Assembly: GCA_008632985.1 (NCBI GenBank)
Contig: QPGO01000334.1
Location: forward strand, 1-52,223
DNA: 52,223 bases
Direction: 5' to 3'
DNA from: Psammoneis japonica
Taxonomy: Eukaryota
Position numbers and translations under genes: made by a program. Below the pieces are notes generated by a model. The model ran no database searches and was not told the origin of the DNA. It saw only the letters and a program-made list of their open reading frames with translations. This document shows, one piece after another, positions 1 to 50,078 of the stretch (position 1 is its first letter; each line of letters begins with the position of its first letter).

Positions 1-1
1 G

Positions 2-6549: not shown

Positions 6550-8010
6550 TCTCCCAAGTCAAGTCTCGGCGCATTCCTCACGCCCACGCTGCGCTCCATT
6601 GTTCCATGCGACCAGCGACACTGTTGATGGCGTCATTTGTTGGCATTTGCAATCTCTTGCTGCCCTTGTGCAGTCCACCTGCATGAACCACTTTTCCTTT
6701 GGATGCAGCAGCAATTGACTTGACTGGCCCCAAATGACAGAGTGCCAGCCAGCCCAGAGCCATGTCCGGAGGGATGAGAGACATGAGCCAGCACAATTGC
6801 AGATCTGCGCAAAAATTCTTTGGACAGCATCAGCTTTCCAGAGATGTTCCCCATGACATCACAGAGACAAGAGGAGGATCTTCCTTGTTCGTCAACATGA
6901 AGTTTGAAGTTTGCATCATGTTGATGATGCTGGCAGTGGCCAGCAGCTTTGGCGCCCTTCGCGACCTGCACAGGTCACGCCGATGTGGCTGACTCTCGCG
7001 GCTGGGAAAAAGATGCTGCCATGAGCTCTGCAGCAATTTCAGCTCCATGCAGAGTGCACGCATTTGCCCATTTGATGACCACAACAAGAGTGAGGATGCA
7101 GCAATGAAAAACGCATTTGCTTTCTCTTTGTGCCAGCACTTTTCAGCTTTCTCAGCTCCATGCAGAGTGCACATGTTCACCTGGTTGACGACCATGACAA
7201 TGCAGCAATGCAAAATGCACTGACCTTCTCTTTGCCATTTTTTTATGCATCTCTTGGAGAGACACTCTCTCTTCTGCTTCAACTCTCCAGAACAGATGAG
7301 GGTCATGACAGAGAGAAGTCGCCACACTGTCACCACAACAGACTTTTTCTGGCTGACATGTGTGGGCTTTTGGATGTGAACCAGCAGCTTGGTTAGAACT
7401 GTCTGGCAAATGAACAAACAATTTGGTGCCACAGAAATCAAGTGTTGATGAGTGCATGGGCACAAACAGATGTCAACAGCCACACTGCTTTGTTCAAGGA
7501 GATGGGCTGCCACCAAAAAGCGCAAACAAGAGAGCTTGCAGAACACCTCCTTTGCTTGTGGCACCTGCTTTGTGAACACATTGGCTTGTTGATCAGCAGC
7601 ACAAGTGTGAACTCAAGTGCAACCATTGATGGCTTCATTGCAAAAGCAGCAGAGTGTGACATTGAAGTGATGCATGCAGAGATGCATCTCAGGCATGTGC
7701 GAAATTTCTGTTGTGGTGGAGTTGGGCTGTCTTCAGACATGTGTGTGCAGTCAGTGCATGACAGGAGTGGGGCTCGCATCAATGTTTCTCTCCTTGAGTT
7801 CTTCCAACAGGCACACAACAGACTTGACATGTGCAAGCCTCAAGAACACCACAAGCTCATCACACAGTTTGTAGTTTGTAATCTTGCCATGGTGACTTGC
7901 TCTGTGAAGGAATGTGCAATGTCTGGGGAGGCACTGATGATGTCAACCCTTTGTCTCTGTGACTCAGCTCAAACTCTGCCACATTTTTCCTCACTTTTTT
8001 TCAGAGGTGA
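6550..8010. other. TpA/CpG-depleted degenerate block; relic of an unidentified coding sequence or TE
   Basis: Near-absence of TA, excess TG/CA, and interrupted protein-like frames on + (7442-8014). No family recognised. Confidence 0.45.
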
Positions 8011-8019
8011 TTGACACCA

Positions 8020-8486
8020 CATGTGTCTGGACCTGCAAAATGATGCAAGTGAGTGCAAAGAAGACAAAACACCCAGCTTGCTTGGTGATTTGGGTAGAGT
8101 GTGGGTGGTGCATTGTGATTGGATTGCCAACACATGGTCTTGCCATCAACCAACAACATTGTGTGGCCACCAGACTGCTGTTGTCACTTGTTCTTTGTCA
8201 GATGCCAGCCAACACAGTGAGCAACCAACAATTGCAAGCCCATGTCTCAACTTGCTCTTTCTGTTTGCACAAGAGGTGCTGGTGTTGGAATGGATTCTGC
8301 ATCCATGGCTGGATTGAACTGAGCAAGGAGGTGGTTGCTTCTCTTGTTGTTTGAGAGCAAATGTGCAGCAAATTGTGTGCAATTGTCAACACCTTCAAAA
8401 TGCACTTTTTCTTGTCCCAGGTTGGAAGTGTGAACAGCCTCTTCAGTTGCACTGGGATTGCAAAGCAAAATGCAAGCAGTTTGGGG

Positions 8487-8520
<34 letters not shown>

Positions 8521-8930
8521 GATGTTGTCATCTCAGAGGATTGTGCCCAAAACTCTTGCTGGGCACTTGTTGGGCAAGTGTGTCACCCAGGAGCATCAAG
8601 GACCAATGGTGAGAGTGTTGATGCCAACAACCACATGGTGGCCAGCAAAAAAGTCAACAGAGGTGCAACAAAAGCCAAAGTGCGCAGTTTGCACATGCCA
8701 ACAGCAAGCACAGGAGTGACATCTGATGGGCAGCACCACTTCTGTTGGTTGGATTCTTTTTGTTGTTGCACATGTGTTTTTTGATTGAACTGTGATCCGC
8801 ACAAGAACACCAGCATGCAAAAAGCTCAAAGAAGCAGACTGAAAGCAGCAGGAAGCCACAAGAGAGAAAGAGCAACTGATGACAGCACAGGCAACATTTG
8901 AGCAGAGGATGACAGAGGATGGTGACAACA
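8020..8930 (-). pseudogene. Hypermutated duplicate of the DUF3110-like locus (parent ~2760-3600)
   Basis: Colinear similarity, e.g. 8229 caattgcaagcccatgtctcaacttg versus 2956 caattgcaagcccatgtctcgacttg. VYILLYNP has become ACILLCNP. Contains frameshifts. Confidence 0.9.
8485..8520 (+). repeat. (GTT)n microsatellite, ~12 units
   Basis: Direct reading. The parent locus has only ~2-3 units at ~3197. Confidence 0.9.
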
Positions 8931-10670
8931 ATGAAACACGAAATTGACATCATGTTGAATTTCCAACTTTTTGTTGGTGTCAGCAGGGGAAACTGCCAAT
9001 GTCACCCAGTGGAGAGGTGTGGGGTGCAGATGGTGCAGTGGGCTGAAACAGCATCCTCACGCAGGAGGTGGAGAGAACAGGTGGGGGTTCTGAAGATGGG
9101 AGCAGCAAGTTGTGCGTGCAGTTTGGCAGATTGTCAGAGAAGTTGGTTGGCAAGGGCCTTGGCAACAACAAACAAGACTGAGGCTCTGAGAAGGCCCCCT
9201 TTTGGGTGGGACCAGAGGCATGGTGAGCAAGGCCAAATTAAGAAGAGGCAATGGGGTGGCAAGTGGTCAACAAAGCTGCAGTGGCAGGAAAAAGGCCTGA
9301 CAGAGAGAGATGGGCATTGGTGCAGGCGCAGCACAGTGTGCGCAGATGGGTGTGTTGTTGGAAAGAGGGTGCTGAATTCCAGGGCAGAGCAAGAGGAGTG
9401 GGAAAGGGATGCTCTTGATTGGCTCCAAAGAGAGGGCAGTGAGCAAAGTGTCTGGGGGCTCTGAGGTGGTTGACGGTGAAGGGCATGAGGTTGGCGCCAT
9501 GGCTTTGTTGAGGGAAGTGATCACAGCAGTGAGCAGTGGCACACTGGGGCTTTTGTGAGCTCCATGGAATTTCTGTTTTGTGTGCTCAGATGGTGTGCCT
9601 TGGTTGTGGAGTCTTGTGCAGGGGCAGGCAAGCCATGAGCTGGAAGTGGAGGAGGAGGTTTGGGAGCGGCAATGGCAATGGCAAGGCTGGGGGTGAGTTT
9701 GACTCCCTCCTGCACTGGCAGTGGGGTGCTTGAGAGTGGCAAGTGTGGTGTGAGGTTGGTGGGTTTGCAATGAGCTGCAGAGGAGCAAGTGCAAAAGCCA
9801 GAGAGAGGACCTGTTGTTTGCAGAAAAATGGCAAAAAGACCATCTCAAGTTGGGTTGGATGAGGCAGTCTTGTGTCCGAGCAGGGGGGCAGCAGCAGAAG
9901 GCGCTTGGCTCAGCCACAGGGGTCAATGGTGCCAGCGCAAGAAGGGCAGGAGATTGGAGTCTGTTGGTTGGTGGATGTTGGAAGGCAGAGTTTGTGTTGG
10001 AGCATTGGTCTGTCTGTGTCTCCCCATTGTCCTGACCCCAACCAGGCTGGAGACCAACAGGTGAGACAAAGTTGGGGTCAGAGCGCAGGGTGGCCACTTT
10101 CAAAATGACCAAATTCACAAGCAGTCTTTGTGCACAAAATGGCGCCCAATTGCTTTTGAAGGCTTTGGGACTTTGTGAAAATGGCTCTTGAAACAAACAC
10201 ATTGCATGATGACTTTTGAGTGCCTCAATCACACTTTGGTTGAGGTCGCTTCTGCGCAAACCACAGTGGTGTGTGGGTTGGCCCTGAAGGTGGACGTGCA
10301 AGAGCTTTTGGCTGTGTTCCCTCCAGCACCTTCTTGAAAATCCCATCAGTGATGGCAACGTTCCTGTTGAGATTGGCAGCAACAGCACGCGGGTTGCGTG
10401 TTGCTTTCCTTTGGCCCAGCATTTGCCAGGCCCAGATGCAATCATGCAGCACTTGTTGATTTCCTTCAACTCATTTGTGCAGTCAGCCCTTGAGAGTTGT
10501 TCAAAAGCATGAAAGAATTGGACCCTGCGCTGGACAATTCTCAAAGAATTGGTGGTTTCCTCTGAGTTCAAAAAAACAACTTGGCCGTTGACACCATTGT
10601 TTTCAAAGTCATTGCACAGACAAACAAACTTCGAAGACCCCAAGAACATTGTGGATGTCCTTCTCTCCAA
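8930..10670. other. TpA-depleted degenerate block of unknown origin
   Basis: Almost no TA. The long minus-strand ORF 9267-10847 has no Tyr and no recognisable domain. Confidence 0.4.
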
Positions 10671-10927
10671 AATTTTTATCGTAACTCCACGTTCACACAG
10701 ACAACGAGACACAGCCGTCCAGCCAGAGAAGTGTCCAATCGCTGAAGACATCGGTCGGTCTTGGGGGGATGCATGGAACGCCGGGCGAGTGAGTGGAACT
10801 TCCGACACACACGAGAGGTTTCCGGGTGCATTCCGACAGGGCCACAAACGGTCGACCGACAGAGCGCGCGCGGTGACTTTTTACTTCTTTCAATTTTTTC
10901 GAAATCATGCATCACGACGCTCGCGGA

Positions 10928-13900
10928 GCGGCCACCGCTGCGTAGAAATGGCATTTTGTACTGTGACGTCATTTTCATGTAGATTCTACGGCAGTACTGA
11001 AAAGCCGCTCCTTCCTTCTTTTTTTGGGGCCGAAATTCAGATCTCCCTCCAACAATTCTCAGTGCAAAAAAGACGTAAGAGTTACGGAACGAAAATGGTG
11101 AGTCGCCGTTCATCGGTGCAAACGTTGCTGCTTGTGTTCTTGGGTCAACATTCGCAATGTTTTGATTGTATCTCATCATTTACTTACATGTCTATCGTTC
11201 TATGTAAAAACATTGCGAATCTTGGCACTTGCAGAGCGGAAAAGACACTTTGTCTGTGCACGATGTTGAGGAACGCTTGCATGCACTCGCGTGTTGTGTA
11301 CAAGACCCAGACCATCATCATGCCTTTATTCCAGGACAGAGATGGTGGCGAGCATCGAATATCAAAGACCCAGACGAAGGAGAGAAGCCATTTTGGGAGC
11401 AGTTGGGCGTTTCAGGAGATGATTTTGAACGGCTCTACGGGCGCAAGTGGATTTCGAAAATCGACAAGCATGAGCATCCGTTCAACTTGTGTCGTCGTCG
11501 AAAGAAGGGACCGGTCCATTACGTAACAGTATCATTGCTACATGAGTTTTCAGATTATGGTGATACAATTACAACACCAGGAGATGAAAATGGCGTCTCC
11601 GATAATCTCGCATACAGGCGGTTGCTGACTGATGTCATCAGAAGAGGTGACCGCGCCAAGGAAGCTCGGGAAGCAGAAAGTGCATCCAAACAAGCCACAA
11701 AGCAAGATGAGGTCGACAACAGCAAACCATCAGCGTCCTTAACCCATCCCATGTCCACCCCGACAGCCCGTCCCAAGGATGATGCACCGACGGAAAAAAC
11801 TGGCGATCGAATTGCTGCCGCGCCCGATGCCGCTCCTACTTTAGTCACGCCCACGTCTTCGGAAGGAACAAGTTCACGACCCATCACTGCTGCCACGGTT
11901 GCAACACCTGACACCACAGCAGTTGCTACAGCAGGTCACAAGGACCCACATGGCTTGGAAGGAGTCCTCACAGCTGACCACAAGGATCCTCAAGACTTGG
12001 AAGGAGTGCTCAGAACGATAAAAGGATTTCGTAAGCTAACTGATGCTAATGATGTTAACAGTTTAGCTCCTACTAAAGCTCTTATCCACATTGGACATGA
12101 GGTTATGAAAATTTTAGAGGAACGTTCCGACGAGAAGGGTATCGTGAAACTCAACCCAAGCACGGGAGGGCGTGGAAGCAAGTGGATGCGAATCCAAGAA
12201 GTCGCGAAGGGCACGTCAAAACGGACAGTACGTCGCCACGCTGCCAAGATAAAGACGTATGTGCAAACAAAAGGGTTGGATAAAGGCTGTACCATCACTG
12301 ATAAAGTGATTGGAAAAGTGCATTCAGAGTGTGCTTGCAAGCCACTCTTTCAGTATAGAAGACACAACAAGATTCTACTCGTACCCGACCCTGAGAAACA
12401 GGGTGAGCTGCGTCAAATGGGAGGGATGACAGAACGCAGGATCATTGCAATGAATGATTTATTTAGTTAATTGACTGGCTTTACATTCTATGAAAGAAAA
12501 AATACTCTCGGGAGGCTTGTTGACGACACAATGCCCGATTTTACTGTCGGGAAACTGAAAGTGAACAACAGCGACGGAAAGGAAACCGAACGGCAGGTAT
12601 TCCAAGTTGAGAGCATCAGTGACATGCTGTGCTCACGAGTAGAGTCTTTGGTTAGGAAAGGCATGCTAATCAAGTCATCTAAACTCACAAGACTCAGCGA
12701 CGACACGCTCATTGTGAGGCTTGGCGGAGACAAGGGCGGCACCTTCATGCAGTTCAAGTTTGGTGCCACGATCATGAACTGTATGGATCCAAACAGTCCT
12801 GACTCATTTGATCTTATTGCGAGCCTTGATGCACCGGACACGTACGAAAACTTAAATAAATTGTTCGTCAAGTGTACGAAAGAGCTGGAGTTTCTTTGTG
12901 ATCTTGAAAGGATTCCCAACATGTGCCTTTTAAGAACAGATGCATCCTGTCCGGGGTCGTTTGTGTGCAATGTTGCTGGGGAAACGAGCGTCGAGGACTG
13001 CTGGGCGAACAAGGAAGTGGTTGAATGTGCTCCTCCAGACCAGCCCAGTCCTGCTGCCCCTGTCACAGCAACCGAGAGCACCAAAGTGCAGGTCCTTTGT
13101 GTTGATGACCACGCTTGGGGGCTACGCTTTGTCAATGCAGAAACAAGCGAAACGGTGGAAATGGCCATTCGCAAAAGAATGAAGCGCACCGAGATTGATG
13201 AAACCACTCTAGAAACTCACACGCTGCATGCGGTTCTTTGCGGCGACATCCAATTCCTCAACAACGCCCTGGGTTTACAAGGATGCAGTGCATCCTTTCC
13301 TTGCTTTGTTTGCAATGTCAGCTTGAAAGCACTGCAGTCGAGATCCAAGAGCATGGCCGAGGGCACATCGCTGCGAACGGCAGCTGAAGCCAAGCAACAG
13401 CTCGAGAACGTCCAAAAGCACAAAACAAAGAAGAAACAAAAACAAGCTGCCAAGGTGAACGGATCAGTTGTCAACCCACCTCTGATTCCAATTGACTTCA
13501 GTCGCGTGCTTCTCTCAACCTTGCACATTGTTCTCGGCATCACCAAGAAACTGTGGGACAACCCAGTCGACAGCGTTCAGAAGATCGACCACGGAAGTTC
13601 GATTCAACACCAGAAAACACTTGAGGTTCGAGATGTGCCATTGGGCCATGTTGCCGAGTTGAAACAGCAAGAGCAAGTCGAAAGCAAGAATCTTGAGAAT
13701 GCCGAGGAGAAAAGAGCCAAAGCTTGGGAATTGCTCCGAGCCGCTCGGAGTCAAGTTCCACCCAGCTTGGAAGCAGAAGCCTCTCTGTTGCAAGCACACA
13801 GAGAAGCATGTGAATCTGTCAGAGTGCACTCACAAATCAAAAGCAAGCGTGACAAGACAGTCCGCCCTGCTCTTGAAGGTGTTCTTGCCGACATGAACAC

Positions 13901-14916
13901 TTGCCTGAAACAACGACGTGGAAAATGTGAGAGCGTGCTAGAATCCGTCATTTGCGAATCACCCATCAATGCCAAGCACAACCCGTTCTATGGCGGATCA
14001 TTTGATGGAAACAATTGCTTCAGATTAATGCACAACCATGGTTCATTGTTCAGTGCCCTGCGAGATGCATCCGAAGATGAGGCGGAAGACGTGAGAGCGA
14101 CTCTGGAAAAGACGGCGAGCACACACGAGGAGATTTTTGGCGCACACGCAAAGCTCTTGCCAAGGTTTAGATCCACTGACGTGTCAAATGAATGTGACAT
14201 TGAGGAGTTCAAGGAGGATCGCGAGATTTTCTGGGAGCTGTACAACGGGTCCGTGACCATTGAGCTTCATCAACTGATCGAGCACGCGGTGGAAATGTTG
14301 GAAAAGTGTGGAACGACAGGTTTCTTCACTGAAGATGCATTGGAATCTATCCATGCAACAGTCAATGCCTTGGCTCAACGATATGCAGCCCTGGATAACA
14401 AGCGCCGTTGTACACAAGTCACTCGGGTTCTTGCGGCGAGGAAGAAGATGAAGATGAACGATGACTTGGTCAAAAAGGAAAAGCACGGCGAGTCGGGCAA
14501 AAAGAGGAAGAGAGTCCAAGGGAAAGCAAGCAGCACAAGTAAGAAAGTGACAGAAGAAAATATTGACACTCAACTTGTTCGTGCACTTACCGATTTCTTG
14601 GATAACGGGGTCGAGAGGACGCAGGAGGAAGACGAAAACCCGGTTGTCAAGTGCAAAGAGTTCGAGGTGGTGCCTTGCATGAAATGCTTCGACACCTTGG
14701 ACTCTGATGTGCATGTGCCATCAATATTGATGCCACTGCACAATGTCTTAGCTCATGTGGAGGTACAGGATAGAGCAGAGACGCAGAACAAGAGGCAGAG
14801 ACGGTAACATCTTCGTCATCGGGGAGATGCTGTTTGTCGTTCTGCGTTGAGCGTGTTATTTGGCGGTAATAATAATAGGTCATGAGTTATTTTGCAAAAA
14901 TCACAGCGGTGGCCGC
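10928..14916 (+). mobile_element. RAG1/Transib/Chapaev-like cut-and-paste DNA transposon, ~4 kb
   Basis: A perfect 13-bp inverted repeat, GCGGCCACCGCTG (10928-10940) and CAGCGGTGGCCGC (14904-14916), brackets a RAG1-core-like transposase. Confidence 0.75.
11095..14807 (+). pseudogene. RAG1-core-like DDE transposase (~1190 codons) with one in-frame TAA at 12468-12470
   Basis: Motifs GGDKGG, CGDIQFL..ALGLQG.SASFPCFVC, TLHIVLG, FDGNNC and LHQLIEH...GTTGFFTEDALESIH parallel the RAG1/Transib core. ORFs 11229-12470 and 12471-14807 share one frame. The likely start is ATG 11095 with a GTGAGT..TTGCAG intron at 11098-11234 (inferred). Confidence 0.8.
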
Positions 14917-15003
14917 GCGAACGTGGCCCAAAAGCGTCGTGGCATCGCATCACACATCACACATCCCTGCCAACAACTCCAACAACAAAACAATACATAC
15001 ATT

Positions 15004-15681
15004 ATGTCTTTGATTTTGAATTACCACGATGCCGTCTTGTACGACTCGGATTTGGCCTTGTTGGAATCTCGAACCGCTTGGCTCAATGACGCTTGCATTC
15101 ACTTTGAAATGACGCGATTGCAACAACAATCGGTTGTTTTATTCTTGGATCCCAGCGTCATTTCCTTTCTGATGCATCAGTGTGAGGACCAAGATGATAT
15201 GCAAGACTTTTGTAATGGCTACAATAATTTTAAAGGAATTCAGAAACTCATGGTACCCATTAATGACGGGCATGCGGCAGCTGGTCTCCAAGAAAATTGT
15301 GGAACTCATTGGAGTTTGCTAGTGATACAACTCCATGACTCCTCGAAGAAGAGTAGTAATTGTTTTCATTTTGATTCCATTCGAGGAAATAATTCGAATG
15401 CAGCTCGAGTCGTGGCAGCCAAGCTGCTTTTGGTGATTCTTGGAACTACAAAAGATGTAAACGTGGTAGAATACAAAACACCGCAACAAGTAAATGGTTA
15501 CGATTGTGGAATTCACATGCTGGCGGCGGCAGAGCTTCTGTCGTCTGTTGAGGATTCTAGTTTGTATGAAAGTACACTAGAGGATGCAATTAGTACAGGA
15601 GATTTTGCCACCCGGTACCGACAAAAAATGGCCTGGGATGTAAAACAGCTGGCTGCGGAATACAGGAAAACTAAAACATAG
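15004..15681 (+). CDS. SENP8: NEDD8-specific protease (SENP8/DEN1, Ulp1/C48 family)
   Basis: LNYHDAVLY.SDL.LL...WLND, catalytic HWSLL, FDS and QQ.NGYDCG. The start is MSLILNY at 15004. Confidence 0.85.
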   Translation: MSLILNYHDAVLYDSDLALLESRTAWLNDACIHFEMTRLQQQSVVLFLDPSVISFLMHQCEDQDDMQDFCNGYNNFKGIQKLMVPINDGHAAAGLQENCGTHWSLLVIQLHDSSKKSSNCFHFDSIRGNNSNAARVVAAKLLLVILGTTKDVNVVEYKTPQQVNGYDCGIHMLAAAELLSSVEDSSLYESTLEDAISTGDFATRYRQKMAWDVKQLAAEYRKTKT

Positions 15682-16118
15682 GGCCCTAGAGATTAGATTT
15701 CAATATAGTACTTACCTTTTACTTCTATTGTGTAAGTGTCTGTACTCTACAGTGTTACCTTTCTAGTCTCTCTATAGATCAGCCTTTTGTTATTTGTGCT
15801 GTCCTCAGATAGATGGTGTATGGACTATTCTAGGAGAACTTCTGACGATACAGTACCACAAGCTACTCACAAAATCAAGTACAGAAGTATTTCTGCAGAA
15901 GTCCATAAAAATCAACCTTACGGCGCTCTCTCAAAACAAATTACATAACCACAGTAAACAAAGCTATCGTTAAAGTCACAATCCATATCAAAACAATCTG
16001 ATTTTTCAATTACAATCTACAGTGCGTCGTCCAACAGCAACCCGTAGTTCTGCTCGCTCACTCGTTCTTCCATAAGCTCCATAAGTCTCTTTCCAAACAC
16101 GTCTCAACAACAACTCAC

Positions 16119-20135: not shown

Positions 20136-20151
20136 TGTCAAGAGGCTGTTT

Positions 20152-31075: not shown

Positions 31076-31102
31076 GATGATGATGATGATGATGATGATG
31101 AT
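31076..31102 (+). repeat. (GAT)n microsatellite, ~9 units
   Basis: Direct reading. Confidence 0.9.
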
Positions 31103-39859: not shown

Positions 39860-42290
39860 TTTCCTTCATGTGCTCACATTGTCCTGCATCAGATTGTGGT
39901 GCTGCTGCTGCTGCTTGCCCTCTTCATTTGCATGCCTTTTCATTGGCAACAGGAGCACTTTGCATGATTTTGTGTTGTTGTTGTTGCAGTCTTTCTTTTT
40001 GACAGATGCGGGAGTTGAGTGCAATGAAAGTGCAAACAATTGGTGCATCAAGGTCAGTGTGTGGTGTCAAAAACATCAACTGTTGAAGCCTTTTCATTGC
40101 CTGTTTCTAAAAAGGATTTGAGGAGTGATTTGTGGCAGAGCTCCATGCTCTTCCCATCAAGAAGATTGGTTGGACTTCACAGGAAAAACAACCAACCACC
40201 TGCTGGTTTTTCATTCCTTGAATGCCTCAGTTTCTTGCCACAGCTTGCATTAACAAAATTGGCTGCTGGCAGCTTGGAAGTCACCATTTGTTGCCTTGAT
40301 GGCATTGGCAGTCTCTCTCATGCTGTTGCTGCACAAAAAGAACTCATTTTGCAATGGATTCAATCTCTGACCTGCTCTGGGAGGTTGCTGCAGGTTCTTT
40401 GTCTGGGTGGCAAGAAATCTGATGTCAACATTGAGGCATGAAGACCCACCATGGTCCTGGCAAACACAGGCCATTTGGTCCTCTGGAGTTTCCAAAATCA
40501 ATTCAGGGCATTCAGCACCTTGGATTCCTTCCAATGCGGGAGTGGTCTTGGAACCAAATGGCAGCTTGGGCACTGTGGAAAGTGGGTGTGGTGGCAGAGC
40601 TTGTGCCAAGATTTTGCAAAAGACCTTTTCTGTTTCAAACACCCACTTCAGACAAAGTGCATTTTCTTGGCAACTTGATGATCCATTGCATTGGAGTCAG
40701 CAAGCCTTGCACCTTTTCACCCTGAAAGTCATGCACTGCAGTCACTCAACACACTTGTGACAAGACATCTTGATTTGGTCATTTCCAAGTCAAGCTCTGG
40801 ATGCTTTTGAAATGTTCCCAAACATCCACCCAGCTCTGATGCAGACTTTTTGCAGAGTGCTCCTTGTTCAGATTTTCAATGGCATCAAAGCAAATGGAGC
40901 TCATCATGACTCTGTTTGATGGCAAGTTCTCTTGCAAAAAACTTCAAGAAACCCAAGGATGATTTCACACAAGTTGTTTGAACACAACACTTGCTGTCCA
41001 AATGACAGTGGGGTTCCACAAGACAACCCTCAGAATTTTTTCTGTTGCACAAAGCAGCAGTCTTCTTGATTGTGAGCTGGGGTGCCATGCAGATTGTCAA
41101 AGACAAGAACATTGCCAGATTCAATTGTCACGTTGAAAACACAATGGAGCCTTCACACCTGTGGGCTGCATTTGAAAACACCATGGTCACATCACTTTTG
41201 TTTGTCAATGTCTCAGACATTTTAAGTTTGGTGAGCAACTCTGCTCACTTGACTGGGTCTTTGTCACAGCTCTCATTTCTGCAATTGTCAAATGCTTGGC
41301 TGGTGAACTTCTGGCCACTTTGGATCAGCTTTGGTGGGAGGTCCTCAAATGCAGCAGTGCAGCTGGTGGCGGGGTGTGGAGAGTCCTGTGCTGTTCCTGC
41401 CAGATCCCCACTTGCACGCATCTCTGGTGTGTTCCTCTAAGCACATGTGGGAGCCCTGCTGCAGGAAAGGACAATGAGCTGCCCCAGCCACTGCCAGCTC
41501 TTCTTGCAACAGCAATTTCCACTTTTGTTCAACTGAGTTAGATTGGGACAAGCATTGCAACAGTCAAAAGAGGGGCACAGCACTGCTTTGCCAAACAAAC
41601 AATTTTCTCATTTGTTTGCTGGGGCCAGTTCCAGCTCCAGGCTGCATCTGCACACAATCCATCAAATGACCTGTTTCACTTTTTGCAAACTTTTGTTCTT
41701 TTGACCCCAGCTTTTGCCAAAATCAGCTGCAAGGCAATGAGAGTGTGCAAAAACTTTTTTAGCAGTGCACAATTTTTGTTGTCTGTCCAAAGCGAAGTTT
41801 TTCAGAGAGGTGGCAAAGCAAGCTTGGTGGGTTTCATTTTTCACCTGGGGCTGGGCCCAGCCAAGTGCACCTGTCACAGGCTGTGTGCCACATGCAGAGT
41901 GTCATCCAAAGCAGAAAGTTTGCAAGGTTTTTGGGAAGATTGTGCTGTTTCCATTGCCCACTGCATTGGGACTTGTGCTGATGCTGGTAAAGCAGAGCAG
42001 GACAATGATGACAAGTGCTGGCTGCAACTTTTACAAAAGGCAAAGAATGGCAAAGAATTGGTTGCGCTCTGATGTCTGGAAAAGCAGAGCAGGACAACAT
42101 CAGGCAACACATGGGGAGGGTTCAGGACAACACAGAGAAGCCAAAAGAGCTTTGTCAAGGTGCTCTCCTTCTTCTGCTTATCTCAGAAAAGTCAACCAAC
42201 AAGTGACGGCCTCTCTTGCTGGACAAAAAGAACCCCTTTTGCAATGGATTCAATCTCTGACCCATTCCAGGAGGTTGCAGTAGGTCCCTT
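39860..42290 (-). pseudogene. Hypermutated duplicate of the ~45940-49080 segment, including a truncated copy of the EcKinase-like gene (~40240-40907)
   Basis: FETEKVFCKILA versus FETEKVFYEILA, and QQPP..GQRLNPLQ in both. Flanks are shared (39860-40190 ~ 45940-46260; 40910-42190 ~ 47790-49080). About 0.8 kb is deleted internally. A further kinase fragment lies at ~42205-42300. Confidence 0.85.
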
Positions 42291-42510
42291 GTCCCGGCAG
42301 CGTGTGCGGGGTACTTCTCGTCCGCGAAGAGACCCATCTCCAGTTTCATGAGTGCGACTGCCATCTTTGGTGGACAGCGAGGAGCACTTCCGTGGAAGCA
42401 TAAATTGCAAAAGGTCGATAAGCAAAAAGAGGCAGAAATCAGCTGGCGGTGAGGACGACACGTACTGCTGCGAGTTTTACAAGAGCTAAAGAGTTTTAAA
42501 GAATTATGAG

Positions 42511-44382
42511 CTACTTAAATGAGCTCTCTTTGGAATTAGACCGTTTCATTGCGGATAAGCGATGAAGCTCAGCGGTGACTTCAAACTGCTTGATTGCTTG
42601 AATAAGAGTCGCCATTTCCAAATCAAGTTTCACGTCGTCAATGCCGGGCGTCCAACTTCGTGGCACCGAGATGAATGGATCTTCCAAAGTCAACTGCGTA
42701 TTAAGCAAGCCCAACAAGATAAGAGAGGTGAAGCATGATAAGATCAACGTAAAGGCCCAGCCAGTGCTTTCAAAGACAAAAGCATAGTATGGTCCCATAA
42801 TCCATGGCAAAATAATAATGTACGCACGGCCAAAGGACCGAGTCGCAAGAGGTGTTCGGTAGTACTTGATGACCCTTAAATATTCGACACGCTGTTGTAG
42901 GTGTTGATGAAACTGATGGAGCCTCGACGCTTCACTACTCGAAAAACCACATTGCCGCATTATTTCGGTGTGCATTGACAGATCCTACTCGTACGTGTGG
43001 TAGATACAAGAGCAAGGTGAGAAATACGAGCCAGGAAGCAAAGGGACGATATAACACAAAGACCTTACAAAAACAATCTCGTTTAATCGCTTCATGATAT
43101 CGTTCTGTGCAGCTCGAACTCGCTTCACGCCTTTCTGTTTGGACCACATGACCACATTACGGGTGTGCGCGACATTTGGCATGCTCAAATACTCGTACAC
43201 CAACTGAACAATTTGAACAAAGTCATTGCAGACATTGGCGTTAAAGTTTTCTGGGAGTTTCAACCGACCCTTGGTGAGCTTTCCGTCCATGGCCCAATCC
43301 ACCGTGATTGTAAAGAGAACGCTACTCATGATGCATGCTTTGAAATCAGCAAGCCGCATCAAGGCTTGCTCACGCCGCTGAAAGGTGGAGGAAATCAAAA
43401 AGGTCAAGGGAAATACCACCGCCACGGACAAAAACGCAAAGTTCAGCCTTGCAGCAAACTTATCGTGGTTGGCACAGTAAAACGACGTGGCCCCGAGTGC
43501 ATTCATGGTGACCAACAAGGCTTCTACACCCACAGACGTGGAAATGTAAATCAAAATGGCTGCAAGATAATTCGTAATGCTTTGTTCCAATGCTTCCTTT
43601 AGTCCCTGATTCTTGGATTTCTCTTCGTCCGCCAAATCATTTCTTAGCAACAACTTGCAATCCCACAGAGTGGGAATCTCGAGCAGTGCGACAGACGACT
43701 CGTCGCCATCATCCAGTCCAACCTTGGCTGTGTGCCCTTCCAGATACTCAAAGTAGGGATCATGATTGGAATGTCTTGATTTATTCATCACACGGTCCCA
43801 GAAACTTGTGCGTTTGGGCATTTGAAGCGACTCGCGACGATACAAGAGACCAAGCCGTCCGAACTTGACATCTTGAGCTTGTTGTTCTGCTGCGTCTTCC
43901 GACATCAACACTTCAAGCTGTGACTCTTCTGCCACAAAGGGATTGATCGCAGCTGGAATCGGGTTATCTTGTTCTTTGTGTTCTTCCGCATTGTGGTGAC
44001 TTGTGCGTTGTTCTTTGTGATGGTGACTCGTCAGACTCATCATGGACTCTTGATCCTTATATCCGTTCATGCTTAGACGGCGATCCGTAGTTTCCGACAA
44101 AATGGCGTCTTCCGAGAACAGAACATCGAATTGAGATGCTTCTCCCCATGTCATGGGGCGGTGATGACGACGTGACGAAGGAGATGGTGGAGGACTCGGC
44201 TTAATTTCATCATCGTCCTTCTGATCTTTGGTGTTTTCATCCTTCTCGTCTTCTGCCATGGTGTCTTTTCCGTTATCGCTCTGTAGTGGCTTGCCTTGGT
44301 GATCATCTTCATCACTACCCATGACAAATCCCTCCTCGAGGGTTTTAAGCGCTCTACTGCTATGAAACGGTTGCTTCTCCAT
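42511..44382 (-). CDS. Bestrophin-like membrane protein, 2 exons (44382-43069, 42984-42511)
   Basis: ATG at 44382 (MEKQPF). A GTAAG..TAG intron at 43068-42985 gives NEIVF|DLSMHTE. Motifs VVFPLTF.I...FQRRE.AL, YRTP...RSF and LEDPF. Confidence 0.7.
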
Positions 44383-46565
44383 GGTTGCTAGTTTGAAGTT
44401 GCTGCCAGGTCCCGCATGTTCGGTAATCTTTTGTTTCTTTTGACACGCTCTTACGCACCTCTCGAAAAGGGTGAGCGAGCGGGGGTGCGATGCGAGATGC
44501 GAGCGCGGATGACAGAACAATGACGACAGATGGCGTGTGCGAGAGCAGAGTGTGGTGCGCAGACCTGCATTTTTTGCGTGTGTCTCTCGAAGATCACACT
44601 TCTTGGGCAGTGAGTGCGGGGTGACACCAGAGGAGCTGAGTTGATGTTGCTCAGAGATGCGAAGAAGGAGACATCAGAGGCAGGATTCCATGTTCTCACA
44701 CCGCTTCTGATGACTCCATTGTTGCCTTCATGATTCCTGCCACCAGGTCAAAAATTCAATTGATGCTCTGTTGACTCAACTCATCTTCTTCCACACGCAA
44801 GCAACAGACACATCCCCCCAATGTTTCCCAGTGGTCTTTCCTCTCACCTGTTCTCCACACAGATGCCCCATGCCAATCCGCACTGCTCTGTTTGTGTGAT
44901 GCTCCTTTTTTCTTTCATTTGTCACCTCTCATTTCCCCATGTTCTTTTGAGGCTTTTTTTCCAATGACTGCAAACATTTCTTCAACCCGCAGCCTTCAAT
45001 TGTGACAATGTCCCATTTGACATGCAAGTCTGCTTGCTCCAAAATTTTTGTTTGTTTGGTTGGGTCATTGCAATGAAATTTTGTTCACAATTTTTTGCTT
45101 TTTGCATCATCTGGCAGGAGGAGTTTCTGCCACTCTCGTCCATCAAAAAAGCAGCACCAGAGTGCAGCCAAATGATGGGAAAGGGAAGTTGCTGGCTTGA
45201 GAACCATCTCCATGTCTGCACTTTTTTGTGCAAGATGCTGCCTCATGTGGATGGCACACTGGAGATGACCGCCATGCTGCCAGGGTTCATCTCCCATGCC
45301 CCCCATTTTCACAAGGGGCACAGCCAGCTGGGTCCTGTGTTGCTTGACAACTTTTCCAACGCCACTGCCAGGGTTCATCTCATGCCCCCCATCTTGATGT
45401 CAGAGGGGGTGCAGCAATGTCATGGTTGGGGCTCACATCAAAATGATTTGTTCATGACACACCAGCCAGCAGCCAGTCATTTTGTCATTGGACCCACAAA
45501 AATTGTTGCCAGATGATGTGCTGCCATCTCCTCCTTCAAGAGCTCAGCATGGCTTTGTTGGAGAATTGTCTTCTGTTTGCTCTGATGATGGAGTGCCTTG
45601 GTGTGCTTTTCTCAAGTCTTTGCTGACTTCCTTTGCTGGTGATGTGGCTGCAACAATGCCCCCCCCCCTTTGTTCAAAAAAGTTTTTTGGCTGGCAAGAA
45701 TTTTGTGGTCTGCCACAAAAGCAAAGAACACATCCACATTCAACTGCTTGCACTCCAAGTCTTTGCTTGTGCTGGAGAAGTGGCACTGTTTCCACAAATC
45801 CACCTTTGAAACATGAGTTTGCTGCCACCACCTTCTGCAAAGCGTTGTGGGTGCTGGCCACTGGGCCACTTGACAGCACACTTTGCATTGGATCTAGCTG
45901 TGGCACCTCATGCAGTGTCATCCTCCTTGATTTGATTGTGATGCTCACATTGCCCTGCATCCGATTGTGGTGACACTGCTTGCCCTCTTCATTTGCATGC
46001 CTTTTGGTTGGCAAAAGGAGATTTGGCATGGTTTTGTGTTGTTGCACTCTTTCTTTTTGATAGATGCAGGAGTCGAGTGTGATGACAACACAAACAAACA
46101 ATGTATGAAGGTCAGTGTGCAGTGTCACAAACATCAGCCGTCGAAGTCCGGCATTTTGTCTACTTTCCAAAAAGGATTTCGAGAGTGATTTATGCTGAAT
46201 TCTAGCTAGAGTGCTCTTCTACACCAAGAGGATTCGTCGGACTATTTGGGAAAGTCAACTATCAGGGTGTCCGGTTTACTCTGTTTTCTCCCTCAAATGC
46301 AGCGGTACACATCGTACTCTGCTTGCACATCTTGCGCCGCATTCCCTATTTTTGCACTCTCCCTGTTCTTCCACTGTTCCTCTAGTTAAGTTTGTGACTG
46401 TGAATACATGCAAAGATGTTTTTCTCAAGCGGGTTCTTGTTAGATTCGTTGTCACCTCATATGTCGACAGACAAAGAAGATGTAAAAGGCGGGATCGATA
46501 GCTATCGAAGCATGGGAAAGCCAATCCTTTTCTTTCGCGTGCGCTCGGTAGCTAGCTTAGGACTA

Positions 46566-47786
46566 TCATATCGTAAGCGGAGTGTTTGTATTGTAGTCTT
46601 TGGCTTGCTGGCATTCCAAGTCAGTGACAAAAGGCAACTGACTGACAATATCAAAGCCGCCCACACAGTACATCACCGTCACTGCACGTCGATTGACATT
46701 TGCAAAGTGTTGCAGCTTTGTCTCGCTTTGCTTTGGATCACCATCAGCCGATAGTTGGCGGCTAATTCTGTCATAGGCCACCAAAATCATCCACTGATAC
46801 AACACGGCCCATCGAAAGTTTTGCAGCATTGTGCTGAATGGAAATTCCGCGTGCAACTCTGGATTACACTTTTTAAGTTCATCATGATACTGCTGGAGCC
46901 ACTCCATGGCATTCGAAGCAGCACCTTCATTCAACATCAAAAAGAAAGCAACGTCCGTCATCGGATTGCCAAATCCAGAGGTCGCCCAGTCTATTAAAAA
47001 AGGTTTTTGTCCTTCTTCTCGGGGGAACAAAAAGTTAGAAATGTTAAAGTCGCCATGCACAGCGCAGAGCTGCTGTGAATGAACCATGTCATGGATATCT
47101 CGCAGCCGCCGTAACTCCAGTTGCTCGCAAAGTTTAACAATAAAATCGCGGGCAGCGGTAAAGTCGCCGTTTACCACCTTGATAGCATCAACGGCCTCTC
47201 TCCATTGCTGCACAAAAAGATACTCCTTTTGCAATGGATTCAATCTCTGACCCATTCCAGGAGGTTGCTGTAGGTTCCTTGTCTCGGTAGCAAAGAACTC
47301 TGATTTCCACGTTGAAGCATGAAGACTCGCCATGACACGGGTGACGCAATCCATCTTGTCCTCTGGAGTACCCGAAATCAATTCGTGGCATTCAACATTT
47401 TGGATTCCTTGCAAAATTAGAGAGGAATCGGAACCAAACAGCAGTTTGGGTACTGTGAACGGTAGGTTGTGTGGCAGAGCTGGCGCCAAGATTTCGTAAA
47501 AGACTTTTTCTGTCTCAAACATCCATTCCAGAGAAAAATCTTTTCTCGGCAATTTGACGATCCATTGTGTCGGAATTGATGAGCCTTGAGCCTCTTCACC
47601 CTGAAACTCATACGTCACAATCACTCGATACACTTGCGACAAGACACCTTGATCTAGTCGTTTCCAGGTCAAGCTCTGGATTCCTGTGAAATTCGTCCCA
47701 AGATCCTTCCAGTTCTGACGTAGAATTTTTGCAAAACGTTCCTTGGTCAGATCTTCAATGGCATCAAAGTGAAAAGAGCTCGTCAT
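46566..47786 (-). CDS. Ecdysteroid-kinase-like / choline-aminoglycoside phosphotransferase family protein, 406 aa
   Basis: GVLSQVYR, IVK, E..FY, HGDFNISNFLF and IDWA..G.GNP..DVAFFL. Confidence 0.85.
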   Translation of the reverse strand: MTSSFHFDAIEDLTKERFAKILRQNWKDLGTNFTGIQSLTWKRLDQGVLSQVYRVIVTYEFQGEEAQGSSIPTQWIVKLPRKDFSLEWMFETEKVFYEILAPALPHNLPFTVPKLLFGSDSSLILQGIQNVECHELISGTPEDKMDCVTRVMASLHASTWKSEFFATETRNLQQPPGMGQRLNPLQKEYLFVQQWREAVDAIKVVNGDFTAARDFIVKLCEQLELRRLRDIHDMVHSQQLCAVHGDFNISNFLFPREEGQKPFLIDWATSGFGNPMTDVAFFLMLNEGAASNAMEWLQQYHDELKKCNPELHAEFPFSTMLQNFRWAVLYQWMILVAYDRISRQLSADGDPKQSETKLQHFANVNRRAVTVMYCVGGFDIVSQLPFVTDLECQQAKDYNTNTPLTI

Positions 47787-50078
47787 GATTCTGTTTGACA
47801 GTAAGTTTTTGCAGAAAAATCTTCAAGCGAAGATTCCATGCAATAAGTCGGCCGAACACACCAATCGCCCAAACGGCAATAGAATTTCCAGACAATCCTC
47901 AGGAACCTTTTCCGCTGCACAAAACAGCAGTCGTCTTGATTGCTGACTAGTCTAGGGTACTATACGGATTCTCAAAGAAGAGTTTAACACCACACCATTC
48001 AATGCTATCTGTAGTGCCCTGTGGTACAGTGCTGTGTATGTATTCAGTGTAGACTATTATGTGTACCTAGAGAGGGCCCTACGGTCTACGGTATGATGTT
48101 GATGCTGTTGCGCGCGAAAATTCATCGCGTGCGGGCACGTCCCTGCTTTTGTCTGGGTCTTCGTCGCACAGTGTCATTTCTGTTTCAATCGAAAGCGGTT
48201 TGGCTGGTGGACTTCTGCCTTGGATCAGTTTTGGCGGGAGGTCCTCTAATTCGTCGGTGCAGTTGATGTCATGATGTGGAGAGTCCTGCACTGATCCTGC
48301 CAGATGAGCCCCATTTGCAAGTCTCTGGGGCATTTCTCTGGAGCCTCGCTGCAAGCAAAAAAGCTGTGAGCTGTTGCTCCATTCGCCTCCAACTCTTCTT
48401 GCAGCAACCTGCAAGTGATGGAAGCATCATGGCTTGACTTTTTTGTCTTCAGCTGTGAGATGGGTGTTGGGAGGAGCATTGTGACAGTCAAAAGGAGGGC
48501 AGCACTCTTTCACCGAGAAGAGGACAATTTTCTCATTTGTTTGTTGGCTCCACAGCACAAGTGACTGGCCAGCTCCAGCTTCACATTGCACGCGTGTGTG
48601 CATGATCCATCAAATGGCACACATCACTTCTCCATCAACTCTCACTTCAGCTTTGTTTTTGCCAAGATTGTGGGGCAAGTGCACACACAAAAAAAGTTTT
48701 TTGTTTGCACTTGTTGCACTTCTTGTGTGACATGATTTTTTTGGCATCATGTCCAAAGAGTGGAGTTTTTCAAAAGGCACTGCAAAGCACACTTGATGGG
48801 TTTCATTTTGCCTGTGGTTGGAGCCAGCCAAGTGCACTTGTCACAGGCTGCACAGAGCAGCCCACAAAGTGGCGGAAAGTTGGCAAGAATTTGAGAAGGC
48901 TGTGCTGTTGTCTCATGTTTGGAGAAGCATGCTTGTGCTGAGAGAAGCAGCACCAGGACAAGGTTGGGGAGCATGTGGAAAAGTTTCAGGAAAACACAGA
49001 GAAAATTGAAAAAGCTTTGCCAAAGTCTTTTTGCTGGTGTGGTGCCCTCACCTTTTCCTGTGTCAGGAAAGTTGGTCACTTGAGTGCAGACACTGCTGCA
49101 AGCTCTCACAAACAACTCCAAAAGTCTTGACAGTGCACTTGCACCAACAAGTGCTTGAAGTGCTGTCAAGGCAGCAGGCGCACATGATGCTGCCTTGTGT
49201 GGATTCAAAAATGAGCATGACAGTGCTGAAAATCCAGGAGCTGGGGTGCTGCATTCTTTTCAAGAAGAGCAAGTCAAAGACATCATCGTCCATGATGTGT
49301 CACAATGAGCAGAGCACCACGTCATGGGCAAATGCACCTGCTGCTTTGTGCAGCACTGCCCAGCGGCGCAGTTGTTTCCTGAGAGCTGGAAAAGAAGAAA
49401 GGCACACAGCAAGGCACAAGAGCAAGGGTGTGTGTGACCCAAGTCACTGTGCAAAGGCACTGCAATGCTCCAGCTCTTCTCACACTCTTCTCCTGATTGT
49501 TGCGCAGCAGAGCTGGCAGCACGTCGCCATCACTGATGTGGTGCCAGCAACGGAGAAGTGGGGCGCACACTCTGATGAAAAGTGCACACTGCACTGGCTG
49601 CATGCACAAACAACCCATGGCACCTTTCCAGCTTGCTTGTTGACTCACATGTCAATGTGGGGGCATTGAGCAAGGAGCGGTGGCCCCACGCTGCTCACAT
49701 CAGTGTGTTTTTGGCTGGTGTGCGGTGAGAGAAGCTGCGGCTTCCACAAAATGGCCTTGTCACTAAAAGTCTGAGTTGGAACAGACTTGCCTCAACCTTT
49801 TGACAGTGTGACAAGAGAGATTCAGACTTGGATGTGGATGCCGTCGCAAACAACAGGAGCATCGCACATGTGGTTGGTCGCTTTTTTCTTCTCGTGCGGA
49901 AAAGCACGCTGAGCATTGACGGACGGATTCAGGATGGCGGACATACAGCACGCTGTGCCAAAAGTGAAAAGTGCTGCACACACTGCACTCATCAGGCTGC
50001 GTCATGTGTTGTTGCATGAGCTCTACTCATGTTTTGTGTTTGAATAAGTAATTGGGAGGGAAAGCAAAAAGTTGGAAA

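Follow-up and report, generated by a model that had tools for sequence, protein, structure and literature searches.

We found that, across a 52,223-nucleotide stretch of contig QPGO01000334.1 from the diatom Psammoneis japonica (hereafter the window), the DNA itself has been rewritten in place, once inserted or duplicated, by A:T to G:C changes that fall almost only at TpA. The strand on which a given TpA changed was random, leaving either TG or CA, and the process was limited to multi-kb domains occupied by transposon remnants, by dead copies of genes and by spacers; it stopped sharply at the edges of expressed genes. The whole is best explained, with a probability of roughly 70%, by a TpA-specific mutator that acts in place on silent chromatin, likely an adenine deaminase, and that has a counterpart in Bigelowiella. 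Targeted TA-erasing mutation has so far been reported once, in an alga unrelated to diatoms.

When TA positions were analysed with a two-state HMM, seven blocks of 1.4–11 kb with sharp limits were obtained. The observed and expected counts were 8/272 for TA and 73/269 for CG in block 1 (6514–10881), 8/84.6 and 71/89.9 in block 2 (12932–14347), 18/316.6 and 116/287.3 in block 3 (18902–23745), 20/273 and 93/227 in block 4 (25670–29674), 45/806 and 51/572 in block 5 (31280–42280), 1/102 and 26/95 in block 6 (44453–46060), and 3/120 and 46/121 in block 7 (48093–50023). Altogether the blocks (29,173 of 52,223 nt) contained 103 TA where 1974.4 were expected, an observed/expected ratio (o/e) of 0.05, and 476 CG where 1661.5 were expected; the remaining 23,050 nt contained 985 TA (1695.2 expected) and 1106 CG (1202.6 expected). 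CG o/e was 0.09–0.79 per block compared with 0.92 outside. Sliding 1-kb windows gave TA o/e of 0.00–0.13, CG o/e of 0.02–0.6 and TG+CA o/e of 1.6–2.06 in block interiors, and TA o/e of 0.4–0.86 and CG o/e of 0.7–1.26 in the flanks. About 2096 TA and CG were missing and 1958 TG and CA were extra, so the surplus accounts for the deficit. These data confirmed that TpA and CpG loss with TG/CA gain in the blocks is real. Within the window, Rab, kinase and other genes outside the blocks had normal composition.

A first-pass annotation had described multi-kb blocks that were poor in TA and CG and rich in TG/CA beside normal genes. The 1-kb windows and the HMM bore this out window-wide, and the extent it gave (6550–50020) matched the outermost HMM edges, 6514 and 50023. 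Its statement that the blocks lie over transposons and duplicated DNA held for some of the block sequence. The recognisable contents were repeats or duplicates in every case, but a large share had no recognisable repeat or Pfam match, and depletion was equally strong where read depth was single-copy (31335–33335, 38672–42006 and 48010–50000, among the stretches compared with reads).

The polarity of change was determined in a gene present in three tandem copies, all on the minus strand, with the state of the majority taken as ancestral. Copy 1 (24513–25631; 14 Tyr) and copy 3 (29888–31255; 17 Tyr) were intact in composition, and copy 2 (26775–28316), with no Tyr in 514 amino acids, was hypermutated; block 4 takes in the tandem unit 1 spacer and nearly the whole of unit 2. 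TA loss in copy 2 stood at 33 of the 43 ancestral sites (77%; 17 A>G and 16 T>C) and CG loss at 21 of 61 (34%), compared with 0/43 and 1/43 TA sites lost in copies 1 and 3. The changes in copy 2 depended strongly on the preceding base: A>G occurred at 33/86 adenines after T, 5/248 after A (0.020), 5/183 after C (0.027) and 5/189 after G (0.026), that is, 33/86 after T versus 15/620 elsewhere (Fisher p=4e-22), and only 1/172 adenines after T had changed in the sister copies. C>T occurred at 21/122 CpG cytosines versus 9/450 elsewhere, showing that the excess was specific to CpG. Reckoned from these counts, the per-base rise was about 30-fold at TpA, compared with about 10-fold at CpG. The strand outcomes (22 TG and 20 CA) formed 24 runs where 22.0 were expected (z=0.64), indicating random interspersion. 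This spectrum supports the earlier claim that A>G at TpA affects both strands and is separate from CpG decay. The 46-mers at 25561 and 28246 cited for it showed six differences and no more: TA>TG/CA at four positions and CG>TG/CA at two.

All 12 Tyr common to copies 1 and 3 were replaced in copy 2 (7 by His, 5 by Cys), and the copy 2 ORF extended beyond the end point of the other two, with Gln at that position. Because TpA to TG/CA cannot create stop codons, inactivation would be by missense; proteins would be killed by Tyr to Cys/His and other replacements, with long empty ORFs remaining. The timing of mutation was also readable. In the spacer common to the tandem units, 19 sites were discordant and concordant sites were in excess by about 92, which places mutation both before and after the tandem duplication. 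Block 5 contains an LTR-retroelement remnant, with plus-strand LTR-like direct repeats at 33527–33834 and 38203–38591 (75% identity) and a minus-strand RT-associated RNase H domain at 35067–35462 (PF17919, 1.6e-10). The repeats differed by 58 substitutions, of which 47 were transitions, and were discordant at 15 CA/TG dinucleotides, showing that the change was made in place, after insertion. Block 3 carries internal repeats at 19085–20654 and had no Pfam match.

The block edges were sharp, often within less than 60 nt, and closely followed the stretches under contigs of a second run (X2). At the edge of block 6 no TA lay between those at 44452 and 45895, and an X2 contig ended at 44446; at block 7 the TA at 48092 was followed by none until 48247, and an X2 contig ended at 48039. 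X2 contigs also covered tandem copy 3 (30001–31063) and the kinase island described below (46226–48039). They look transcript-like, since one of them skips an 84-nt GT..AG intron on the minus strand (42985–43068). This intron kept its TA (8 versus 5.1 expected, counted on 42984–43067), as did the surroundings of an intact minus-strand EcKL/APH-type kinase gene (46569–47822) in a spared island at 46061–48092: 18 TA remained 3′ of the stop (24.8 expected) and 12 remained 5′ of the ORF (15.9 expected), and the flanks abutting the island held 0–1 TA versus about 30 expected. As the intron and sequence outside ORFs keep TA, the sparing is not codon-level selection.

Block 2 showed that the two losses can be separated, as its TA o/e was 0.09 and its CG o/e was 0.79, leaving CpG intact. 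It is a 1.4-kb patch within a plus-strand DUF1280 gene-like ORF (11208–14804) that has one in-frame TAA at 12468–12470 and is TA-depleted in part; a Ulp1 (C48) protease ORF lies downstream (14851–15678). As an external control, four of four metagenome relatives of the DUF1280 gene had TA o/e of 0.47–0.86 throughout. The limits of this patch are not explained by the domain model and count against our preferred explanation. The surviving TA sites were also informative: TTAA made up 34/103 of them in blocks versus 43/985 in normal DNA, from which the TpA process appears to be weakened about five-fold or more at TTAA. All three ancestral TTAA sites in polarised pairs were mutated, a tiny sample that fits poorly with strong TTAA resistance, and the comparison of which flank confers resistance (13 versus 6) was a weak test.

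We infer both the targeting to silent chromatin and the identity of the deaminase. An enzyme brought to silent chromatin would be responsible, most likely an ADAT2/TadA-type adenine deaminase acting on DNA. The natural substrate of this type, in tRNA, is an A that follows U; inosine made in DNA would then be copied as G. The Pfam domain matches within the window included no deaminase gene. The TpA process would outpace CpG decay and could occur without it, and CpG loss in the same domains would be expected if they were cytosine-methylated silent chromatin. Such methylation is suggested by the CpG loss together with the CpG methylation described for LTR elements of another diatom (Maumus et al. 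2009, PMC2806351). Mobile and redundant DNA would thereby be inactivated for good, an outcome that we interpret as a defence function. More tentatively, and at somewhat less than even odds, a chromatin-guided TpA-specific mutator may be a defence common to SAR protists (stramenopiles and rhizarians), likely a TTAA-sparing adenine deaminase that is saturating in diatoms, recognises transcription-unit limits to tens of bases and operates together with CpG methylation. If so, the TTAA-sparing fingerprint would provide a direct biochemical handle for identifying the enzyme.

An unlikely alternative is a passive one, in which lesions or thymine modifications specific to TpA, arising either everywhere or in heterochromatin, are repaired where chromatin is active and left unrepaired where it is silent. 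This would give T>C without adenine deamination, for example if a TET/JBP-type enzyme oxidised T to 5-hydroxymethyl- or 5-formyl-uracil, which mispairs with G. In dinoflagellates 5hmU favours TpA, and 5-formyluracil mispairs with G. T>C on one strand is indistinguishable from A>G on the other, and a repair-access model also predicts that spared islands match the transcript-like contig coverage. However, transcription-coupled repair of one strand would not account for edges of less than 60 nt or for the complete sparing of both strands, of promoter-proximal DNA and of the intron, and intergenic spacers were normal in the gene-dense parts (1–6513 and 14348–18901). Furthermore, the Bigelowiella process is described as episodic among lines, suggesting regulation (Mettrop et al., bioRxiv 10.64898/2026.01.13.699255).

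Less probable still is a homology-triggered, RIP-like process that detects duplicates by pairing and mutates all copies, intact ones surviving through selection. Each recognisable block item is indeed a repeat or duplicate, and block 2 could be the only portion of its gene with a duplicate elsewhere in the genome. In three paralogue sets, however, one copy was hypermutated and the expressed copy untouched: the tandem gene; a DUF3110 gene (2877–3917, minus strand), with a dead copy at about 8228–8930 in block 1; and the kinase gene, with a pseudogene at 40268–40940 (minus strand) in block 5, part of a hypermutated colinear duplicate (39690–41950) of 45547–48916. Tandem copies 1 and 3, the DUF3110 gene and the kinase gene were unmutated in their non-coding parts as well, keeping normal TA in intron, non-ORF and promoter-proximal DNA beyond the reach of codon selection. 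Copies 1 and 3 were spared despite their adjacency and 81–86% protein identity to copy 2, the spacer was mutated already before the tandem duplication, and blocks of single-copy depth were no less depleted. Homology alone is therefore not the trigger, and the sparing of intact paralogues argues against RIP-like targeting. The term 'repeat-associated' in the first-pass annotation was imprecise given the spared copies.

It is very improbable that the pattern arose from 5mC, 5hmU or 6mA in heterochromatin miscalled by a long-read basecaller or polisher, the true bases being TA and CG. If a palindromic modified site were miscalled on each strand, random TG or CA would likewise result. Contigs of the public run X1, however, carried the hypermutated sequence nearly letter for letter, with 0–3 differences per 1–4 kb (0 over 30892–33907 and 2 over 38372–42264). 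They were up to 315 kb long, with a k-mer depth of about 65 (62–77) that was even across normal and hypermutated parts; the accuracy of X1 reads is taken from this length and depth, and X1 may be the window's own source sample. Contigs of this kind could not come from noisy reads, and accurate polymerase-based sequencing reports a modified base as its parent base. In addition, the LTR-like repeats and the tandem copies differed mutually at these sites within the same data. The agreement at even depth makes miscalling unlikely and largely removes the concern about artefacts that had called for independent reads. Where the window and the read contigs disagreed, only 1 of the 15 differences listed fell at TpA (a cross-mapping tandem-repeat stretch excluded), giving no sign of ongoing activity here.

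Equally improbable are Y-family error-prone patch repair (Pol-eta-type A>G at WA), which the first-pass annotation had named as a candidate, and ADAR-like editing of retroelement RNA before reverse transcription, since, although both yield A>G and favour a 5′ T/U to some degree, A>G after A was no higher than after C or G, without a WA pattern, and random two-strand interspersion in host gene duplicates and spacers rules out RNA editing as the source. The 5′ U preference of ADAR is also stated by Mettrop et al. (bioRxiv 10.64898/2026.01.13.699255).

The process in the window resembles RIP in the lasting mutational inactivation of repeats and mobile DNA by dense, dinucleotide-context transitions, whose scar can be read by o/e indices. 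RIP, in Neurospora and other ascomycetes, makes C>T mainly at CpA, creating TpA and stop codons and lowering GC, and mutates all copies of a duplication within one sexual cycle. Here, by contrast, A:T>G:C at TpA destroys TpA, creates no stops, spares intact paralogues and, together with CpG decay, is GC-neutral. Ascomycete-type RIP was rejected on the 1/181 C>T changes at CpA in copy 2 and on the unmutated sister copies, DUF3110 gene and kinase gene. Deamination of 5mC is likewise a C>T process restricted to CpG and explains the CG>TG/CA share only; it cannot touch TpA, whose loss was larger and faster in copy 2 and was present with CpG intact in block 2. In animals, APOBEC enzymes make C>T, typically after T or C, on retroelement DNA, and ADAR acts on RNA, hyper-editing dsRNA; a 5′ U is favoured by ADAR, as it is by tRNA adenosine deaminases. 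These enzyme-driven systems share with ours clustered transitions in mobile elements and a neighbour-base preference, but here the genomic DNA of non-retro sequences was altered, on both strands. An APOBEC-type source was rejected because non-CpG C>T after T in copy 2 was 2/150 and strand outcomes were not clustered.

The closest likeness is to Bigelowiella natans, in which TpA-only A>G/T>C hypermutation was seen arising in mutation-accumulation lines (Mettrop et al., bioRxiv 10.64898/2026.01.13.699255), a description that supersedes the first-pass statement that none was known. According to that preprint, the targets are integrated NCLDV and virophage DNA, the larger NCLDV region being transcriptionally silent; the rate is about 6e-7 per site per generation; the regions are unsaturated, with Rho TpA of 0.45; clusters depleted in TpA and enriched in CpA and TpG, and also RT/DDE genes, occur elsewhere in the genome; and an ADAT2-type deaminase is proposed, not demonstrated. 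The terms CpG, trinucleotide, TTAA and diatom are absent from its main text, and our literature search found no report of TpA hypermutation in diatoms. Whereas B. natans shows the process in real time and in viral DNA, the window holds a fixed, near-saturated end state in a stramenopile, where the process has struck transposon remnants, dead copies of host genes and spacers, and CpG decay co-occurs. Both, as far as that account and this window go, have almost exclusively A>G/T>C changes on TpA, yielding TpG or CpA by strand, in discrete multi-kb domains of foreign or transposon DNA beside normal sequence, which suggests that the blocks are the diatom counterpart of the live TpA hypermutation of B. 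natans.

The first-pass annotation had described multi-kilobase stretches that are nearly free of TA and rich in TG and CA, lying beside normal genes, and dinucleotide counts across the window bore this out. When observed/expected (o/e) ratios were computed in 1-kb windows, the depleted DNA had TA at 0.00–0.13 in long runs, CG at 0.02–0.6 and TG+CA at 1.6–2.06, and the DNA in between had TA at 0.4–0.86 and CG at 0.7–1.26. A two-state HMM on TA positions called seven depleted blocks, numbered from left to right: 6514–10881 (block 1), 12932–14347 (block 2), 18902–23745 (block 3), 25670–29674 (block 4), 31280–42280 (block 5), 44453–46060 (block 6) and 48093–50023 (block 7). These blocks (29,173 nt) contain 103 TA and 476 CG, where base composition predicts 1974 and 1661, respectively; the non-block 23,050 nt contain 985 TA versus 1695 expected and 1106 CG versus 1203. 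Relative to the o/e of normal DNA, about 2096 TA+CG are missing from the blocks and 1958 TG+CA are in surplus, and this rough equality indicates that the TA/CG loss is explained by conversion to TG/CA. The two 46-mers compared in the annotation were found where it had placed them, and their six differences are four TA>TG/CA and two CG>TG/CA changes.

We compared public reads with the window because a modified base miscalled per strand at a palindromic site would mimic this pattern. Run X1, whose library type is unrecorded and which may be the sample behind the window assembly, contained 0.97 of the 31-mers sampled from 38001–48000. Its contigs were up to 315 kb long, with an even k-mer depth of 62–77 over single-copy DNA, normal and hypermutated alike. 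Only accurate reads can yield contigs of such length and depth, and when accurate reads are polymerase-based they report modified bases as the parent base. A basecalling artefact had been considered in the annotation, and the X1 contigs carry the hypermutated sequence, with 0 differences over 30892–33907, 2 over 38372–42264 and 3 over 47239–50000. Excluding a stretch of tandem-repeat cross-mapping, only one of the 15 listed differences between window and contigs was at TpA, so that no ongoing change is visible in the X1 data, in which contigs mask rare variants.

The direction and context of the change were read from three tandem gene copies on the minus strand (copy 1, 24513–25631; copy 2, 26775–28316; copy 3, 29888–31255), with the ancestor taken by majority rule over about 1.3 kb. 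In the hypermutated copy 2, 33 of 43 ancestral TA sites had changed (17 A>G and 16 T>C), as had 21 of 61 CG sites, and the same TA sites had changed at 0/43 in copy 1 and 1/43 in copy 3. With the strands folded, 33/86 adenines preceded by T in copy 2 had gone to G, compared with 5/248, 5/183 and 5/189 of those preceded by A, C and G, respectively (Fisher p=4e-22 for the TpA-context excess), and with 1/172 adenines after T in copies 1 and 3 combined. C>T occurred at 21/122 CpG cytosines and 9/450 elsewhere. By our reckoning, the mutation rate in copy 2 was about 30-fold higher at TpA adenines and about 10-fold higher at CpG cytosines than at the same bases elsewhere. An APOBEC-type (TpC) pattern was ruled out by the C>T count of 2/150 at non-CpG TpC. 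Pol-eta-type patch repair, a candidate in the annotation, is disfavoured as well, since A>G after A was as rare as after C or G and the spectrum therefore has no WA pattern.

Strand outcomes were balanced and interspersed (22 TG and 20 CA, in 24 runs versus 22.0 expected). Strand-coordinated clusters were not found when TG:CA was compared in 500-nt bins, the blocks (chi2 79.8, 55 df) being no more skewed than normal DNA (101.5, 44 df). Two LTR-like direct repeats in block 5 (33527–33834 and 38203–38591) share 75% identity; 47 of their 58 substitutions are transitions, and 15 dinucleotides are CA in one and TG in the other, as expected if each ancestral TA or CG site had been converted independently in the two repeats. 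The spacer half of the tandem unit is depleted in both copies, which have about 92 excess TG/CA in common and differ at 19 sites, indicating that conversion was mostly older than the tandem duplication, with some later. The mutation process has thus been long active, and this tandem duplication was not its trigger.

TpA loss and CpG decay can be told apart, the former being faster. TA o/e was near-saturated throughout, at 0.01–0.09 per block, and CG o/e was 0.79 in block 2, 0.27–0.41 in blocks 1, 3, 4, 6 and 7, and 0.09 in block 5. CpG-specific C>T as seen here is what 5mC deamination would leave, and passages of Maumus et al. (2009, PMC2806351) describe LTR elements as CpG-methylated in another diatom. 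Within the blocks, CpG loss was milder in GCG/CGC (0.51 relative to normal) than in the ACG, CCG and TCG contexts (0.28–0.30). The surviving TA sites were enriched in TTAA, which made up 34 of the 103 survivors in blocks versus 43 of 985 TA sites in normal DNA. Approximate survival relative to normal density was 0.63 for TTAA, 0.10 for TTAB or VTAA and 0.03 for VTAB. If survivors were TA re-created from TG/CA, 8.1 TTAA would be expected versus the 34 seen (p=2e-13). Surviving TTAA were present in five of the seven blocks, and two of four in the spacer were retained in both tandem copies. Two results count against a strong TTAA effect: all three ancestral TTAA in polarised pairs had mutated, and a weak flank comparison (13 versus 6) leaned toward a 3′ A being unfavourable. 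Trinucleotide counts, which depend on an uncertain ancestral block composition, were unstable as to whether resistance stems from the −2 or the +1 base. The words 'trinucleotide' and 'TTAA' are absent from the main text of a preprint on Bigelowiella natans (Mettrop et al., bioRxiv 10.64898/2026.01.13.699255), whose supplementary mutation tables may show a preference.

Block edges were examined at single TA sites. TA sites reach 44452, with the next at 45895, and 48092, with the next at 48247; they also reach 31279, with none to 31700, and 25669, with none to 26000, both being ends of the intervals listed. The spared islands 29675–31279, 42281–44452 and 46061–48092 contain the X2 contig stretches 30001–31063, 42498–44446 and 46226–48039, respectively. 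This run is listed as 'DNA?', and we read it as transcript-derived because one contig skips an 84-nt segment with GT..AG ends on the gene strand; it was used for covered stretches only, its absence over most of the blocks being no sign of silence. No contig of a further run, X3, was placed on the window. Non-coding island DNA keeps TA: 8 versus 5.1 expected in a spared-island intron, 18 versus 24.8 on the 3′ side of the stop of the intact EcKL/APH-type kinase ORF (46569–47822, minus strand), 12 versus 15.9 on its 5′ side, and 8 versus 3.6 in the 53 nt adjoining an edge. The islands are therefore not protected by codon selection. Ten TA sites are packed into the 56 nt (48037–48092) that abut block 7, just upstream of where the transcript-like kinase contig ends; this TA-rich segment may be a core promoter marking the boundary.

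Gene content was surveyed by a Pfam scan of the 117 ORFs of at least 110 aa, which may have missed small transposon remnants among the 209 listed ORFs of 62–109 aa, and paralogues were sought by local tblastn of window ORFs against the window. Normal DNA encodes DUF4419, DUF3110, DUF6824 and VASt-domain proteins, an ankyrin-repeat protein, a Rab-type GTPase and the kinase. The top relative of the DUF6824 ORF (17402–18538) has 42% identity, and those among the best 120 listed that have an organism name bear diatom names (Bacillariaceae, Pseudo-nitzschia, Attheya, Pseudictyota and truncated names starting with 'Thal-'). Block 5 holds an RT-associated RNase H remnant (35067–35462), flanked by the LTR-like pair, and a dead colinear duplicate (39690–41950) of the kinase locus (45547–48916) was also identified. 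Block 1 contains a dead DUF3110 gene copy (about 8228–8930), and the middle copy of the tandem triplication (24452–31279) lies in a block. The 2.69-kb tandem unit is repeated about 2.5 times with one gene of about 370–450 aa per unit; of the three copies, the outer two look intact and the middle one is dead. This gene had no Pfam match, and its best protein atlas score, 0.88, gave no family. Block 3 has short internal direct repeats (19085–19417 with 19817–20150, and 20154–20345 with 20469–20654) that match no family.

According to X1 depth, for stretches with reads, the retroelement part is multi-copy and 31335–33335, 38672–42006 and 48010–50000 are single-copy. Summed depth of X1 contigs of at least 90% likeness reached 1586–3071 over 33336–38671 versus about 65 for single copy, and contig joints connect 33671 with 38375; the LTR-like repeat belongs to an abundant family, perhaps with solo repeats elsewhere. 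For a large share of block sequence no match at all was found by self-comparison, the Pfam scan or the window tblastn. The repeat association claimed in the annotation thus holds in part: transposon remnants and duplicates do lie in blocks, but intact paralogues are spared and much block sequence is matchless. Since those paralogues are unmutated, RIP-like homology sensing is disfavoured. On the simplest reading of these sequence patterns, the mutator would follow a silent, probably CpG-methylated chromatin state and would be kept out of transcription units.

Under the genetic code, no sense codon becomes a stop through TpA>TpG/CpA, and the only stop that this change keeps is TAA, as TGA. The blocks have 48 TAA and 29 TAG versus 747 TGA, which fits this rule, and long ORFs consequently persist in dead DNA. 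RIP creates stop codons whereas the TpA change here does not, a sharp functional difference. In copy 2, each of the 12 Tyr common to copies 1 and 3 is replaced, seven by His and five by Cys; this copy has no Tyr in 514 residues and reads through Gln past the end point of its sisters. Across all blocks, many ORFs of 110–537 aa without any Tyr were seen on both strands, TAA and TAG being almost gone.

Block 2 lies inside a DUF1280 gene-like ORF (11208–14804) with one in-frame TAA (12468–12470), followed by a Ulp1 (Peptidase_C48) protease ORF, the two spanning 11208–15678; the pairing resembles a DNA-transposon gene set. DUF1280 homologues (1176–1322 aa) align along the whole ORF; they are mostly metagenomic, some with misleading source names (antitoxin, hotdog dehydratase). 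At the eight block 2 columns with Tyr in at least three of five homologues, the ORF has His (2), Cys (2), Phe (2) and Tyr (2), both retained Tyr being family-invariant, and typical replacements were Leu>Ser, Ile>Thr/Met, Val>Ala and Lys>Glu. No hypermutation was found in four of four metagenomic loci of DUF1280 relatives (TA o/e 0.47–0.86 along the gene, which does not measure spread), indicating that the family is not inherently TA-poor. This 1.4-kb patch, strongly hit with CpG intact, may reflect an event that is recent or incomplete, or it may be a mosaic.

Taken together, genomic DNA has here undergone a TpA-specific A:T>G:C change that acted on both strands, in place, within limited domains and faster than CpG decay. 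We propose that an enzyme recruited to silent chromatin would make this change. An adenine deaminase of the ADAT2/TadA type would be the best-fitting agent, because its natural target, A34 of tRNA, follows the conserved U33. Mettrop et al. (bioRxiv 2026) state that ADAT2 has been reported to act on DNA in amphioxus and trypanosomes. Judged from sequence alone, less probable rivals are a lesion that would be repaired in active chromatin only and thymine oxidation at TpA.

Whatever its agent, the TpA process can rework more than half of a 52-kb region. Transposons lose recognisability, as with the two LTR-like repeats, presumably of one element, and gene duplicates are inactivated without stop codons. 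Repeat finders and gene predictors will mishandle such DNA because of its long, empty, Tyr-free ORFs, and dating of LTR elements by divergence would give grossly false ages. As under RIP, the scope for novelty through gene duplication would be constrained. A natural adenine deaminase acting in a double-strand context with a TAB preference, if true, would be of interest to builders of base editors. Some diatoms are transformable, so the question may be testable.

To our knowledge, hardly any case of natural, targeted A:T>G:C editing has been described for genomic DNA, and we found a single 2026 preprint, which does not identify the enzyme. The first-pass annotation knew of no description of the signature; the same one is, however, reported by Mettrop et al. 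(bioRxiv 2026) to arise in integrated giant-virus and virophage DNA of Bigelowiella natans mutation-accumulation lines. No description of TpA hypermutation in diatoms was found in the literature available as searchable full text. Compared with the Bigelowiella natans case, the signature here occurs in a distant lineage and in a saturated form, and the present analysis adds that its edges are sharp and hug genes, that it can be separated from CpG decay, that paralogues are spared and that survivors show a TTAA bias.
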